Shown one piece after another: positions 1-4,510 of a stretch of DNA of 4,510 bases. Each line of letters begins with the position of its first letter. Within the stretch, counting starts at the first letter, position 1. A program made the translations under genes and the position numbers. The DNA is taken from IMG/VR virus record IMGVR_UViG_2671180680_000008; one strand, given 5' to 3'. Under the pieces are notes generated by a model that did not search any database, was not told where the DNA came from, and worked only from the letters and a program-made list of their open reading frames with translations. This DNA comes from a virus (Duplodnaviria; Heunggongvirae; Uroviricota; Caudoviricetes).

Positions 1-66
1 CTGCATGACAAAGTCATCGGGCATTATCTGAACATAAAACACTATCAATAAGTTGGAGTCATTACC
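1..66 (+). mobile_element. insB: IS1 terminal fragment: 3' end of insB plus the 23-bp right inverted repeat (44-66)
   Basis: Bases 1-51 translate in frame 1 to LHDKVIGHYLNIKHYQ-stop, which I recognise as the InsB C-terminus. Bases 44-66 (atcaataagttggagtcattacc) are the reverse complement of the IS1 IRR ggtaatgactccaacttattgat. The IS1 body lies left of the window. Identity is from memory of the IS1 sequence, not a search. Confidence 0.93.
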
Positions 67-448
67 CGTTAAAACATCTGCAGATAATGACGTTGACTTG
101 GATACAGATGGATTCAGACAACTGAGGATATCGTGCCCATCCCCTTCTGCCAGCGGTGCGATTATATTGAGAAAAGCTTCTTATGAATTCGGCAAAAGTA
201 TAGGTGTATTTGATTTTGCAAACAATGCATCACCAGCGACGATGACATTTTTGATCCCAATATATAAAGATGATGATTTTGATTCAGATACTGTTGGTTT
301 TACATTTGCGTTCAAGATGCCAAGAGGCCAGTTTTTTGTAGATGTAAAAGAAAACGGGAATATCAGAGCTGGAGTTAATGTTAATGGCGAGTCGGGAGTG
401 ACCTACGAAAATTGCAAATTGAATATGAAAGATATTAATGATGATTAA
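67..448 (+). CDS. AT-rich hypothetical protein, probably a 3' gene remnant whose 5' end was cut by IS1; function unknown
   Basis: Frame 2 is open from base 38 (inside IS1) to TAA at 446-448, at least 127 codons. Hand counts give 37% GC for 181-240 and 28% for 241-300, so an open frame this long is unlikely by chance in such stop-rich sequence. A strong intrinsic terminator follows immediately. The ORF-track start at 53 is a TTG inside IS1 and is not credible; the first in-frame ATG is at 242 with no Shine-Dalgarno. I recognise no family motif. Confidence 0.5.
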
Positions 449-455
449 TATATAA

Positions 456-480
456 GCCGCCAGAAATTGGCGGTTTTTTT
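456..480 (+). terminator. Rho-independent terminator after the AT-rich ORF
   Basis: GC-rich stem ccgcca (457-462) pairs with tggcgg (468-473) around loop gaaat, followed by a 7-T run (474-480), starting 8 nt after the stop codon. Confidence 0.75.
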
Positions 481-485
481 ATAGT

Positions 486-490
486 GGAGA
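486..490 (+). promoter_or_regulatory. Shine-Dalgarno (GGAGA) for the N-like gene
   Basis: GGAGA lies 4 nt upstream of ATG 495. Confidence 0.5.
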
Positions 491-494
491 CAGT

Positions 495-1886
495 ATGGAC
501 TTACCTTCTTTACCTTCTCTTTCTTCACTCTTTTCTGCATCTTCAGGTATCAATTGGCGCGATAATCTTTACGACGCTTCATTTCGTGGCGTTCCGTTTT
601 CGGTGGAGAGCGACGAGGGTTCGTTCGGACGCCGCGTTCAGGTCCATGAATACCCAAACCGTGACAAACCGTACACGGAAGATCTCGGGCGTGCCACGCG
701 ACGGCTGACGATTAATGCGTATCTCGTTGGTGATGATTACGCAGAGCAGCGCGACAGGCTGATTACAGCGATTGAAACCGCCGGGCCGGGGACGCTGATC
801 CATCCGCAGTTCGGTGAAATGCAGGGCTGTATTGACGGGCAGGTGACCGTTTCTCACTCCGGCACTGAAGGCCGTATGTGCCGGGTTTCATTTCAGTTTG
901 TTGAGAGCGGGGAACTGTCATTTCCGGTCGCCGGAGCTGCAACCGCCAGAAAACTGGAGGAGTCGTCCGTATTCCTGGATGAGTTGATTGAAGACATGTT
1001 CGGCGATTTTGATCTCGCGGGAATACCGGACTTTATTCAGAACGATGTTATTGCCCGGACGACCGATATGCTGGGAACCGTTCAGACAGCTTTCAAAATG
1101 GTTAATTCGGCTGTTTCTGCCGGAGCGAGACTACTGCAGGGCGATTTATCCGTCATTCTGATGCCGCCGTCGGTTGCCAGTGATTTTGTGCATACGTTGC
1201 AGGATACCTGGCGGGCCGGAACCCGGCTGGTGGATAACACACAGGATCTGGTGCAGTCCATAACGACAATGTCCGGCATTACGCTGGACCCAGGACTGGC
1301 ACCGCGTGCGGTGTGGCCCACAGATTCCGCATCGGTTATCAGGCAAAAACAGCAGACAAACCTTGTGGCTGCTGTCATCCGGACGACGGCAATCAGCGAA
1401 GCCACAAGGGCGGTCACTTCACTGCCACAACCCGGAAGCCTGGTGAAAAATCAGCAGGCGGTTGTGGCTGTTGGTGGTTCCACTGAACGTCAGTCCGATA
1501 TTATTCACGTTTCTCATCCGGCACTTGACAGCGTGGCAGCCAGCACAGGACAGGATGAGAGAGCGCAACCACCCACGCGGGAAAATCTCACCATCATACG
1601 CAAATCGCTGAACGCGGCGATTGAACAGGAGCTCAGGCGTACGGCGGATGACAGGCTGTTTTTTCAGCTGACGTCATTACGTACAGAACTGAACCGGGAT
1701 ATTCAGGCGCGTCTGGTTCAGACGGAGGAAACCGCAGAGCGAACGCCAGCGGAAGTTCTGCCTGCGCTTGTTCTGGCTGCGTCATGGTACGACGATGCGT
1801 CCCGTGAAACTGATATCCTGGATCGAAATGCCATCTCTCATCCGGGCTTTGTTCCGGTCAGGGCATTAAGGGTACCCGTCAGATGA
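495..1886 (+). CDS. Phage DNA-circularisation protein (Mu N-like, 463 aa)
   Basis: Uninterrupted 463-codon ORF. The N-terminal region (WRDNLYDASFRGVPFSVESDEGSFGRRVQVHEYPNRDKPYTEDLGR) matches my recollection of the conserved DNA_circ_N-type motif of Mu N-family proteins. Position directly upstream of P/V/gp46/gp47 homologues fits Mu gene order. Not confirmed by search. Confidence 0.82.
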   Translation: MDLPSLPSLSSLFSASSGINWRDNLYDASFRGVPFSVESDEGSFGRRVQVHEYPNRDKPYTEDLGRATRRLTINAYLVGDDYAEQRDRLITAIETAGPGTLIHPQFGEMQGCIDGQVTVSHSGTEGRMCRVSFQFVESGELSFPVAGAATARKLEESSVFLDELIEDMFGDFDLAGIPDFIQNDVIARTTDMLGTVQTAFKMVNSAVSAGARLLQGDLSVILMPPSVASDFVHTLQDTWRAGTRLVDNTQDLVQSITTMSGITLDPGLAPRAVWPTDSASVIRQKQQTNLVAAVIRTTAISEATRAVTSLPQPGSLVKNQQAVVAVGGSTERQSDIIHVSHPALDSVAASTGQDERAQPPTRENLTIIRKSLNAAIEQELRRTADDRLFFQLTSLRTELNRDIQARLVQTEETAERTPAEVLPALVLAASWYDDASRETDILDRNAISHPGFVPVRALRVPVR

Positions 1887-2971
1887 ATGATACCGTTTTA
1901 CTTCGGGTTTCCGGTCGCGAATGGGGCGGCTGGACATCCGTCCGTATCAGTGCGGGCATTAACCGTATTGCCCGGGATTTTAATGTTGCCATTACCACCC
2001 GCTGGCCCGGAAGCCGGGATTATCAACCCCGGATAAAAAATGGTGAGCTGGTTGAAGTGCTTATCGGGGATGAGCCTGTGCTCACCGGATATGTGGAGGC
2101 ACTACCGCTTCGTTATGACGCCAGCAGCGTCAGCATGGGAATTGTCGGGCGAAGCAAAACAGCCGATCTGGTTGACTGCTCTGCTTTGCCACTCCAGCAG
2201 AGCGGAAAAAACCTGCTCAGAATAGTCAGTGAACTGGCTGCGCCATTTGGCATCACCGTTGTTGATGCTGGCGTGCCGCAGACAGCGGTGATTGATGCCC
2301 AGCCGGAACACGGCGAAACCGTTGCCGATTGTCTTAACCGGTTACTGGGGCAGGTTCAGACGCTGGCTTATGACGATGAATGCGGGCGACTGGTTCTGGG
2401 AAAACCCGGAACAGGTAAAGCGGCGACGGCGCTGGTGCTGGTGCTGGTGCTGGGAGAGAATATTCTTTCCTGTGACACGGAAAGAAGCATCAGAGAGCGG
2501 TTTTCTGAATATCAGGTCAGTGGGCAGCGCCCGGGCAACGACGATGATTTTGGTGAGGCCACCATTGCCGCAATACGTCAGACCATTCAGGACAGTGGCG
2601 TGACCCGTTATCGCCCTTTGTTGATTCAGCAGTCAGGCACAGCAACGACAGCAACCTGTAAGGCCCGTTGTGAATTTGAAGCGCGCCAACGGGCTGCGCT
2701 TACCCGTGAGACAACATATACGGTTCAGGGCTGGCGGCAGGGCAGTGGCGCGTTATGGCGTCCGGGGTTATCTGTCATCGTTTTCGACCCGCTGAATAAT
2801 TTTGATAATGATGAACTGGTGATCGCAGAAGTTACCTATAACCAGGACGACCGGGGCACGACGACTGAATTACGGGTTGGCCCGGCAGATGCTTATCTCC
2901 CCGAGCCTGTTACCGCCAGGAAGAAAAAAATGTTGAGGAGGATTTCTGATGAACGGGTTTTCTCTTCGTAA
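1883..2971 (+). CDS. Phage tail/baseplate hub protein (Mu P / P2 gpD-like, 362 aa)
   Basis: 362-codon ORF whose ATG (1883) overlaps the N stop codon (ATGA at 1883-1886), indicating translational coupling. Size and position between N-like and gp45-like genes match the Mu P (gp44) slot. Confidence 0.78.
   Translation: MNDTVLLRVSGREWGGWTSVRISAGINRIARDFNVAITTRWPGSRDYQPRIKNGELVEVLIGDEPVLTGYVEALPLRYDASSVSMGIVGRSKTADLVDCSALPLQQSGKNLLRIVSELAAPFGITVVDAGVPQTAVIDAQPEHGETVADCLNRLLGQVQTLAYDDECGRLVLGKPGTGKAATALVLVLVLGENILSCDTERSIRERFSEYQVSGQRPGNDDDFGEATIAAIRQTIQDSGVTRYRPLLIQQSGTATTATCKARCEFEARQRAALTRETTYTVQGWRQGSGALWRPGLSVIVFDPLNNFDNDELVIAEVTYNQDDRGTTTELRVGPADAYLPEPVTARKKKMLRRISDERVFSS
2432..2452 (+). repeat. 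In-frame tandem hexamer (CTGGTG) x3.5 inside the P-like gene, encoding LVLVLVL
   Basis: Direct read: ctg gtg ctg gtg ctg gtg ctg at 2432-2452, in the P reading frame (protein segment ATALVLVLVLGEN). Confidence 0.9.
2935..2941 (+). promoter_or_regulatory. Shine-Dalgarno (GAGGAGG) for the gp45/V-like gene, embedded in the 3' end of the P-like gene
   Basis: GAGGAGG lies 7 nt upstream of ATG 2949, which is 23 nt before the P stop at 2969-2971. Confidence 0.6.
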
Positions 2972-3249
2972 TCTGATTTCCCGGGCTGTCATCACGGCGG
3001 TGGATTCCGCCAGAAAGTGTCAGTCTGTAGGGTTGAAAATGATAGCCGGAGATCAGAAACAACACGTTGAGCACCTTGAACCTTATGGTTTTACATCTGC
3101 CGCACAGAACGGTGCTGAGGGCGTTGCTTTATTTCCGGCGGGCGATCGTTCTCATGGTGTGGTTGTGGTCGTGGCTGACAGACGTTACCGGCTGAAAGGA
3201 CTGAAACGTGGGGAAGTGGCGCTTTATGACGATCTGGGACAGTCCGTTG
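2949..3249 (+). CDS. Baseplate spike / assembly protein V (Mu gp45-like); 5' portion only, 3' end lost in the N-gap
   Basis: About 100 codons are visible. The segment HVEHLEPYGFTSAAQNGAEGVALFPAGDRSHGVVVVVADRRYRLKGLKRGEVALYDDLG resembles the conserved core of gp45/gpV spike proteins as I recall them. Strong RBS; overlaps the P 3' end. The C-terminus lies in the unresolved gap. Confidence 0.72.
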
Positions 3250-3489
3250 NNNNNNNNNNNNNNNNNNNNNNNNNNNNNNNNNNNNNNNNNNNNNNNNNNN
3301 NNNNNNNNNNNNNNNNNNNNNNNNNNNNNNNNNNNNNNNNNNNNNNNNNNNNNNNNNNNNNNNNNNNNNNNNNNNNNNNNNNNNNNNNNNNNNNNNNNNN
3401 NNNNNNNNNNNNNNNNNNNNNNNNNNNNNNNNNNNNNNNNNNNNNNNNNNNNNNNNNNNNNNNNNNNNNNNNNNNNNNNNNNNNNNNNN
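3250..3489. other. Assembly gap: 240 N
   Basis: Direct read of an uninterrupted n run. True length is unknown, so the frame relationship across it cannot be trusted. Confidence 0.99.
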
Positions 3490-3858
3490 TCGATCGACCT
3501 TCTGACGCGTGCTGTGATTATTTCGCTTTTTACATGGCGGCGTGCCGGGCGTGATGATGCACCACGGATATTTGGATGGTGGGGGGATACCTGGCCTGCG
3601 GTTCAGAATGATCGCACGGGGTCGCGTTTGTATCTGTTGCGACGCAGCAAGCTGACAAATAAAACCCCGCAGCTTGCCAGAGATTATGTCCGTGAGGCGC
3701 TGGCGTGGATGGTGGAGGATGGTGTTGCTTCCCGTCTTGATATTAACGCTGTCCGGACCGGGACAGACTCGCTGGCACTTGCCATTACCATTTACCAGCG
3801 TGACGGCAATATTCACAACATTATTTTTGATGATATCTGGAGTGAACTGAATGGCTGA
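3490..3858 (+). CDS. Baseplate protein gp46-like (Mu gp46 family); 3' portion only, 5' end in the N-gap
   Basis: 123 codons are open in frame 1 from the gap edge to TGA 3856-3858. It contains FGWWGD and GSRLYLLRRSKLT, motifs I associate with the Phage_GP46 family. The stop overlaps the next gene's start (ATGGCTGA). Confidence 0.75.
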   Translation, partial: SIDLLTRAVIISLFTWRRAGRDDAPRIFGWWGDTWPAVQNDRTGSRLYLLRRSKLTNKTPQLARDYVREALAWMVEDGVASRLDINAVRTGTDSLALAITIYQRDGNIHNIIFDDIWSELNG

Positions 3859-4444
3859 CAGTCAGTTTTATCGCCCCGGCCTCCCGCAACTTATTTCTAT
3901 GATCCGGAGCGATTTATTAACCCGCTTTGAGCAGGATACGCTGCTTCGTCGTATGGATGCGGAAGTGTATGCCCGTGTACAGGCTGCAGCCGTACACACG
4001 TTGTACGGGTATATCGATTATCTTGCCAGAAATCTGTTACCGGACGTGTGTGATGAAGACTGGCTGTACCGGCACGCCAGAATCAAACGCTGCCCGCGAA
4101 AAGAAGCGGTGGCAGCCCGGGGATTTGTGCGCTGGGATGGCGTAGAGGGGACGCCGGTATTGCCAGCGGGAACGCAGATCCAGCGTGATAATCAGGTGAC
4201 CTTTACCACGACGGCGACGGTGACCGCAGCCGATGGTCTTCTCCGGGTGCCTGTTGTGGCAGACGAACCGGGATCGGCGGGGAATACGGATGATGGTATT
4301 GCCATGCAACTGGGAACACCCGTCAGTGGTCTGCCGTCCACAGGGTACGCTGACACCATTACAGACGGTGAAGATATTGAAAATCTGGAAATATGGCGTG
4401 CCCGCGTTATGGAACGTTATTACTACATTCCACAGGGGGGCGCA
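3851..4444 (+). pseudogene. Baseplate J-like protein (Mu gp47-like), cut after about 198 codons by the IS1 insertion
   Basis: ATG at 3851 overlaps the gp46 stop. Frame 2 is open from 3851 to the window end, reading into the IS1 inverted repeat at 4445. It is not in the ORF track because no stop occurs in the window. Family call rests on position after gp46 and general similarity to baseplate-J N-terminal regions, so it is less certain than the truncation itself. Confidence 0.72.
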
Positions 4445-4510
4445 GGTAATGACTCCAACTTATTGATAGTGTTTTATGTTCAGATAATGCCCGATGACTT
4501 TGTCATGCAG
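4445..4510 (-). mobile_element. insB: IS1 terminal fragment (IRR at 4445-4467 plus insB 3' end on the minus strand), inverted relative to the left copy
   Basis: Bases 4445-4510 are the exact reverse complement of bases 1-66, checked by eye base by base. They start with ggtaatgactccaacttattgat, the IS1 IRR. The IS1 body lies right of the window. Confidence 0.93.

Follow-up and report, generated by a model that had tools for sequence, protein, structure and literature searches.

Background

A stretch of 4,510 nt from a tailed-phage record (IMGVR_UViG_2671180680_000008), hereafter the window, begins and ends with the same 66 nt in opposite orientation and encloses phage genes. The question raised by this layout is whether it marks a segment of DNA that flips or moves with the aid of two insertion sequences, or whether it records two unrelated insertion events, seen through the ends of a broken contig. 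Here, I argue that the latter is highly probable, namely that the window represents 4.4 kb of a prophage baseplate module lying between two independently transposed IS1 copies, and that it is a contig bounded by repeats. In what follows, L001 denotes the locus of Escherichia coli FDAARGOS_944, and L002 that of a complete genome carrying the window sequence.

The ends of the window belong to IS1

Upon recomputation, positions 1-66 and 4445-4510 form a perfect inverted repeat, 100% complementary over 66 nt with 4378 nt in between; the pairing ends at window position 67, where C is set against T. A perfect repeat of such length within 4.5 kb cannot have arisen by chance. Comparison with complete chromosomes identifies the terminal 66-mer as the 3' end of IS1, on the insB/IRR side, that is, the final 66 nt of a 768-bp element, and thus bears out the first-pass annotation, which had regarded both ends as perfect reverse complements from the insB-proximal end of IS1. 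The 23-bp right inverted repeat of the left copy spans window positions 44-66, and its insA and insB genes are transcribed toward the interior.

The element is 768 bp long, 25 of the 33 IS1 copies being identical. Its terminal repeats of about 23 bp are imperfect (IRL and IRR match at 18 of 23 positions), the products of its ORFs match Pfam PF03811, PF12759 and PF03400, InsA measures 91 aa, insB' is present, and the A6C frameshift motif AAAAAAC lies at IS1 positions 307-313. The 768 bp are 100% identical to elements annotated in RefSeq as 'IS1-like element IS1A family transposase', and IS1A is found in 4971 of 5426 E. coli genomes. In one copy (CP104423) the A6C run is longer by one A. That this could yield a fused, constitutively produced transposase was considered and rejected; the additional A is probably a homopolymer error, for singletons with -1 and +1 changes at the same run occur in other assemblies, some of which also contain split phage genes.

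Gene content of the enclosed segment

The interior had been described as a tail fragment of a phage, and both Pfam and PHROG assign tail and baseplate genes to it (Table 1). The order is that of a Mu/phiP27-like baseplate module and all Pfam matches exceed their gathering scores; gp47 is split, and gp45 and gp46 are partly hidden by undetermined bases. The gene interrupted at the left has no Pfam match; its intact 160-aa form is found at L001 11900-12382, and its GC content is 37% vs 54% for the remaining interior. As to the gene interrupted at the right, an intact baseplate J/gp47 gene of 360 aa lies at L001 15817-16899 (PF04865, E=1.6e-54), and its C-terminal part continues directly past the right IS1 in the form of ORFs matching PF26079. 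The gp44-like gene contains an in-frame (GCTGGT)3 repeat at 2431-2448, a VNTR present in 1-5 copies among loci.

Table 1 Features of the window (positions 1 to 4,510)
Position	Strand	Feature	Evidence or remark
1..66	+	Left IS1 end, IS1 positions 703-768	Identical to L002 9507-9572; full element L002 8805-9572
67..75	.	Inner copy of the 9-bp target duplication of the left IS1, CGTTAAAAC	Repeated directly outside the IRL end
67..448	+	AT-rich phage gene, function unknown (phrog_5586), 3' part from about codon 37 of 160	phrog_5586, E=9.7e-89
454..480	+	Hairpin resembling an intrinsic terminator	10-pair stem, then T run; follows the phrog_5586 gene
495..1886	+	DNA-circularisation protein (Mu gp43/N-like), intact, 463 aa	PF07157, E=3e-36; phrog_184, phrog_17109; RefSeq annotation
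1883..2971	+	Baseplate hub/assembly protein (Mu gp44/P-like), 362 aa	PF21683, PF22255, PF22630, PF21929
2949..3249	+	Mu gp45-like baseplate assembly protein V gene, visible 5' part	Remainder under the N run; full 177-aa gene L002 12455-12988, PF06890, E=2.1e-26
3250..3489	.	240 N, gap or mask	280 bp in complete genomes (L002 12756-13035)
3490..3858	+	GP46-family baseplate gene, visible 3' part	Full 136-aa gene L002 12994-13404, PF07409, E=4.5e-33
3851..4444	+	Baseplate J/gp47 gene, first 198 codons, interrupted by the right IS1	PF04865
4436..4444	.	Inner copy of the 9-bp target duplication of the right IS1, GGGGGCGCA	Repeated directly outside the IRL end
4445..4510	-	Right IS1 end (IRR), inverted, last 66 nt	Identical to L002 13991-14056; reverse-oriented IS1 starts there (L002 13991-14759)

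The run of N, on which the first-pass annotation was silent, covers the 3' end of the gp45-like gene and the 5' end of the gp46-like gene. It falls 40 nt short of the interval it stands for, the interior measuring 4418 bp in complete genomes vs 4378 in the window. The idea that it might conceal something unusual was discarded, as complete genomes contain ordinary gp45/gp46 coding sequence at this place.

The DNA outside both IS1 copies is also a phiP27/Mu-like tail module, collinear with the interior in order and orientation. On a single strand, tape measure, IS1, the phrog_5586 gene, DNA-circularisation, gp44, gp45, gp46 and the N-terminal part of gp47 are followed by the second IS1, the C-terminal part of gp47, gp48 and fibres, and when the IS1 copies are removed the genes are intact again, as judged against a relative with empty sites. 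The closest phage is phiP27 (AJ298298 / NC_003356), with 96.1% nucleotide identity over window positions 491-3249; none of the loci examined showed stx genes. The prophage adjoins ssrA, with the tmRNA gene at its edge, and further insertions at the locus comprise IS4 and an IS3-family element, as well as IS5 in strain 866.

Target duplications and empty sites

The window sequence lies between two full-length IS1 copies in 16 distinct complete chromosomes of about 4.8 Mb, with right ends facing inward, as the first-pass annotation had proposed; both copies are present in 16 of the 17 distinct complete chromosomes examined, and the window is 100% identical to three of these loci (L002, L005 and L010). 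Two of the 17 chromosomes have their species confirmed by the literature, namely CP066810, which is Shigella sonnei 893916 (PMC8549364), and CP022672, which is S. sonnei 866 (PMC6128377). The outer flanks of the isolate itself are taken to be those of the identical complete genomes.

The first-pass annotation had set the two inner flanks against each other and drawn conclusions from their mismatch. Such a comparison is informative for neither hypothesis, for the flanks to be compared are the inner and the outer one of a single copy, which becomes possible only with extended sequence; moreover, the right flank had been mis-indexed, since CAGGGGGGC sits at 4433-4441 while 4436-4444 reads GGGGGCGCA. 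In the complete chromosomes the target duplications that it had proposed to look for around each copy are found, and they measure 9 bp: the left IS1, on the + strand, has a perfect CGTTAAAAC on both sides in all 16 chromosomes with that copy, and the right IS1, on the - strand, has GGGGGCGCA on both sides in 17/17. In E. coli FDAARGOS_944 (99.5% identity) neither site is occupied, and CGTTAAAAC and GGGGGCGCA are each present once there.

A duplication proper to each copy, collinear outer flanks and empty sites in a relative together lead to two independent simple insertions, one of the options that had been left on the table. On this reading, the left IS1 inserted into the phrog_5586 gene at about codon 37. 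The right one, pointing the other way, went into the baseplate J/gp47 gene behind codon 198. Each event produced its own 9-bp target duplication, the usual length for IS1, which more rarely gives 8 bp, and both inactivate phage genes. The left junction would be expected to read ...TTATTAGTAACGTTAAAAC, then IS1 from IRL to IRR, then CGTTAAAACATCTGC, and the right junction ...CACAGGGGGGCGCA, then IS1 from IRR to IRL, then GGGGGCGCAGACCCTG; likewise, the outer flank of the left copy should end in ...TAGTAACGTTAAAAC and that of the right copy should begin with GGGGGCGCAGACCCTG.... When genome contigs were scanned for exact matches to GGAGTCATTACCCGTTAAAACATCTGCAG, the left junction, there were 0, so that the source contig was not recovered there. 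For the order and timing of the two events one has to rely on inference.

IS1 is known to build composite transposons, with either direct arms (Tn9) or inverted arms (Tn1681), and the pair described here, with inverted arms and outward IRL ends, has the architecture expected for a unit of the latter type, in which the baseplate genes would be the cargo moved. Nonetheless, the outer 9-mers of the IS1-IS1 unit differ (CGTTAAAAC vs GGGGGCGCA), so that no common target duplication surrounds the whole; the supposed cargo is collinear with the surrounding prophage genes, which removal of IS1 restores; no match to the interior occurs on any of 72,556 plasmids; and when the window was compared by megablast with complete E. 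coli chromosomes, each of the best matches listed contained the segment without the IS1 junctions. The composite transposon is, therefore, exceedingly improbable.

A second option concerns inversion. The two 768-bp copies are identical, inverted and separated by 4.4 kb, and so offer a substrate for RecA-dependent recombination, which would flip the baseplate segment, the window being one isomer or product of it; besides, inversions flanked by IS elements are common in Shigella at the chromosome scale (PMC8072062). After an inversion, though, an inner TGCGCCCCC would stand opposite the outer CGTTAAAAC, while matching duplications are found at each IS1 in 16/16 chromosomes, and gene order is native in all 16 that contain both copies. 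Nor is an orientation-dependent function visible in a prophage that is devoid of head genes and whose gp47 and phrog_5586 genes are already broken. The inverted isomer was seen in none of the 17 distinct chromosomes checked by duplication pairing (both copies being present in 16), consensus assemblies being able to hide minority isomers. Unswapped duplications, collinear flanks and the missing isomer speak against the first-pass suggestion that recombination between the IS1 copies had formed or inverted the segment; I regard this scenario as very unlikely. The companion suggestion, that the segment might be deletable, fails on principle: as a general rule, an exchange between inverted repeats turns the DNA between them round and does not delete it (PMC8072062). 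Measurable flipping of the 4.4-kb segment by IS1 x IS1 exchange in growing S. sonnei, or its mobilisation in the manner of Tn1681, is likewise improbable; if true, it would entail structural heterogeneity masked by consensus assemblies, and a function for flipping gets no support here.

A contig bounded by repeats

Equal stop depth at both ends, 66 nt inside a repeat, is a signature of assemblers, and one could suspect that a single IS1, or none, was wrongly joined to both ends of a contig. In closed genomes obtained independently, hybrid assemblies with long reads among them (PMC8549364), two complete IS1 lie at these exact junctions, whereby the 66-mers belong to full elements and a chimera of one copy, which the first-pass annotation had contemplated, becomes extremely unlikely.

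What the assembler probably did contribute, with two independent insertions in place, is the extent of the window. IS1 being multicopy, short-read assemblers stop at it and would release the unique stretch as a separate contig of about 4.5 kb, whose ends, running 66 nt into IS1, would appear as terminal inverted repeats. The first-pass annotation had named such a break as well, correctly, and the same proteins do recur on small contigs: the exact 463-aa protein is found in 3271 index blocks, the longest contig being 2-5 kb in 3132 of them, and the same holds for 1636 of the 1699 blocks with the exact 362-aa protein. The presence of these proteins on small contigs in thousands of assemblies fits a recurrent, repeat-induced break. 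The exact overhang of 66 nt is compatible with an assembler overlap and may be due to it; an overlap of k-1 with k=67 would be a guess at the reason. All in all, the window appears to be a repeat-bounded short-read contig from a genome of the S. sonnei type, the isolate itself being presumably S. sonnei.

In practice, where the two ends of a contig are perfect inverted repeats that reach equally far into a known IS, the contig should be taken as bounded by repeats, and a mobile or invertible reading should be entertained only once the two flanks of every IS copy have been set side by side; the locus also exemplifies how multicopy IS elements fragment short-read assemblies. The two IS1 sites, together with the nearby hexamer VNTR, are candidate markers of S. 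sonnei lineages. The biological weight is otherwise small, this being a further case of IS1 expansion breaking prophage genes of Shigella.

Comparison with known systems

Like Tn9 and Tn1681, the locus consists of two IS1 copies around a few kb, with the inverted layout of Tn1681; it differs from them in that a unit-wide duplication is missing, the enclosed genes are native to their place, and no second location of the unit was found. The G segment of Mu and the C segment of P1 are switched by the serine invertases Gin and Cin at short crossover sites, whereby tail-fibre genes are exchanged. They are likewise tail-region DNA between inverted repeats, but here the repeats are whole IS1 elements without an invertase, baseplate genes are enclosed, and a single orientation is seen.

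With respect to IS1 itself (isoform IS1A) of E. coli and Shigella, the element has the same 768 bp, repeats, insA/insB', A6C -1 motif, Pfam domains and 9-bp duplications, and no difference emerges, the window itself holding only 66 nt of each copy. The module has the gene order of the tail module of the Stx2e phage phiP27 and of Mu gp43-gp47, with the Pfam families of Mu gp44/45/46/47; in contrast to phiP27, the prophage is defective, without head genes and with gp47 split, and it has the additional AT-rich phrog_5586 gene, which falls outside the phiP27 match.

Two IS1 insertions in a prophage are ordinary for Shigella; this particular pair is not described in the available text of PMC7373316 or PMC6128377. 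In Shigella, IS insertion sites come mainly from IS1 (Hawkey et al. 2020, PMC7373316), and most prophages of S. sonnei 866, including phiP27-like regions, contain IS elements (PMC6128377). Along the same line, the lost head genes, the nearby IS4, IS3-family and IS5 elements and the two IS1 copies are part of an IS-driven decay of the prophage, and the locus, with its two IS1, IS4 and IS3-family insertions, resembles the IS-driven pseudogenisation and prophage decay that those texts report for Shigella (PMC7373316, PMC6128377).

Two independent IS1 insertions

The first and last 66 nt of the window are perfect reverse complements, spaced by 4378 nt, their complementarity stopping exactly at position 67. 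The shared 66-mer is the insB-proximal (IRR) end of IS1 and forms the final 66 nt of a 768-bp element in complete chromosomes, which confirms the inverted IS1 ends described in the first-pass annotation. The products of this element match the IS1 Pfam families PF03811, PF12759 and PF03400, its A6C frameshift motif is present, its terminal repeats agree at 18/23, and its sequence matches IS1A copies annotated by RefSeq at 100% identity. Some assemblies carry copies of 767, 769 or 770 bp (L002 13991-14759, in a locus identical to the window; also L014, L016 and L019); these indels are singletons, and three out of five lie within the A6C run, which has gained an A in CP104423 and lost one in two others. 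The likeliest explanation is homopolymer error in long reads and not mutants with a fused transposase.

Searching for exact matches to the 463-aa and 362-aa proteins yielded 17 distinct complete chromosomes of ~4.8 Mb, among them S. sonnei 866 (CP022672) and S. sonnei 893916 (CP066810); three are identical (100%) to the window on either side of its N run. Full IS1 copies and flanking duplications were sought and found in 16 of the 17, where both copies are complete and each has its own 9-mer: the left one (+ strand) has CGTTAAAAC on each side, and the right one (- strand) GGGGGCGCA. The latter is the 9-mer at 4436-4444, where CAGGGGGGC, which lies at 4433-4441, had been misplaced. Beyond the left copy are the start of the phrog_5586 gene and the tape-measure gene; beyond the right copy the C-terminal part of gp47 resumes, and gp48 and fibre genes follow, with no change of strand from the interior.

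In E. coli FDAARGOS_944, which carries ipaH, the module is 99.5% identical and lacks IS1 at either site; in-silico excision of each IS1 with one copy of its 9-mer yields the sequence of this relative. The separate 9-bp duplications, the collinear flanks and these empty sites bear out one of the origins proposed earlier, namely that two simple IS1 insertions occurred independently in a collinear prophage next to ssrA that was already in decay. The other proposal, a segment invertible or deletable by recombination between the copies, is not supported: inverted repeats recombine to invert, not to delete (PMC8072062), and a past inversion predicts swapped duplications, which are unswapped in the chromosomes with both IS1, these being consensus genomes and as such blind to rare inverted molecules. 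A composite transposon, which would carry foreign cargo and be bordered as a unit by a single duplication, was rejected as neither feature is present, and a plasmid search for the segment found none; an assembly chimera of a single IS1 is ruled out by the closed genomes. The observation is thus confirmed and its earlier interpretation partly supported, within known biology.

A recurrent small contig

The longest contig measures 2-5 kb in 3132 of 3271 index blocks for the exact 463-aa protein and in 1636 of 1699 for the 362-aa one, and this near-uniformity indicates that the same small contig recurs across draft assemblies, as expected of the draft contig broken at a repeat that had been suspected. 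PMC7373316 describes IS1 as the commonest IS in Shigella and the main contributor of insertion sites; short reads cannot cross it, so that contigs break at both copies. Each end of the window runs the same 66 nt into IS1, which may reflect an assembler overlap. The window also contains 240 N, previously unmentioned, which correspond in every complete genome to 280 bp (the gp45-like 3' end and the gp46-like 5' end); being 40 nt short, the run does not give the true length, and could represent either a scaffold gap whose size was estimated or a mask of altered length.

Prophage neighbourhood

The prophage remnant adjoins ssrA/smpB. Of its head module only a Peptidase_S78 fragment survives, and it also contains IS4 and an IS3-family element. 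Several loci, namely L013, L014, L015 and L018, have IS4 copies on both sides and bamD/rluD abutting the left end, which hints at a larger IS4-associated rearrangement. In S. sonnei 866, a 1196-bp IS5 stands in place of 1225 bp including the phrog_5586 gene and the entire left IS1, so that the right IS1 alone remains; there is no 4-bp duplication around this IS5, which suggests an IS5-associated deletion. The prophage of FDAARGOS_944, a strain labelled E. coli in which the tail module is intact, is EIEC/Shigella-like and occupies a different chromosomal site, near zinT; it has ISEc60 insertions in its portal and sheath genes, and its tail-fibre genes are followed directly downstream by an ipaH effector gene with a frameshift.

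Interior genes

Features of the window, in interior order, and of related loci
Feature	Location	Remark
phrog_5586 gene, 3' part	window 67-480	first; range includes own terminator
DNA-circularisation protein gene		second
gp44/P-like hub gene		third
(GCTGGT)n VNTR	window 2431-2448; L002 11937-11954	in hub gene, in frame
gp45-like and gp46-like genes		after hub gene; partly hidden by N run
N run	window 3250-3489	
Baseplate J/gp47 gene		last; first 198 codons
Prophage remnant	L002 1-21392	
tmRNA	L002 19488-19850	
IS4 copies	L013, regions 1-1271 and 20157-21089	
IS5	L008 8791-9986, corresponding to window 1-480 and upstream	S. sonnei 866
phrog_5586 gene	L001 11900-12382	FDAARGOS_944
ipaH	L001 21275-22916	FDAARGOS_944

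The hexamer of the baseplate hub gene occurs in three copies in the window, one in the E. coli relative and two to five in the 17 S. sonnei-type chromosomes, where the products have 360-366 aa. The target of the left IS1 in S. sonnei is the phrog_5586 gene, which lies between the tape-measure and DNA-circularisation genes, is AT-rich at 37% GC and encodes 160 aa; a Pfam search of its product gave no match. The nearest phage is the Stx2e phage phiP27 (96.1% over window 491-3249), and the phrog_5586 gene, falling outside this match, therefore looks like a moron-type insertion.
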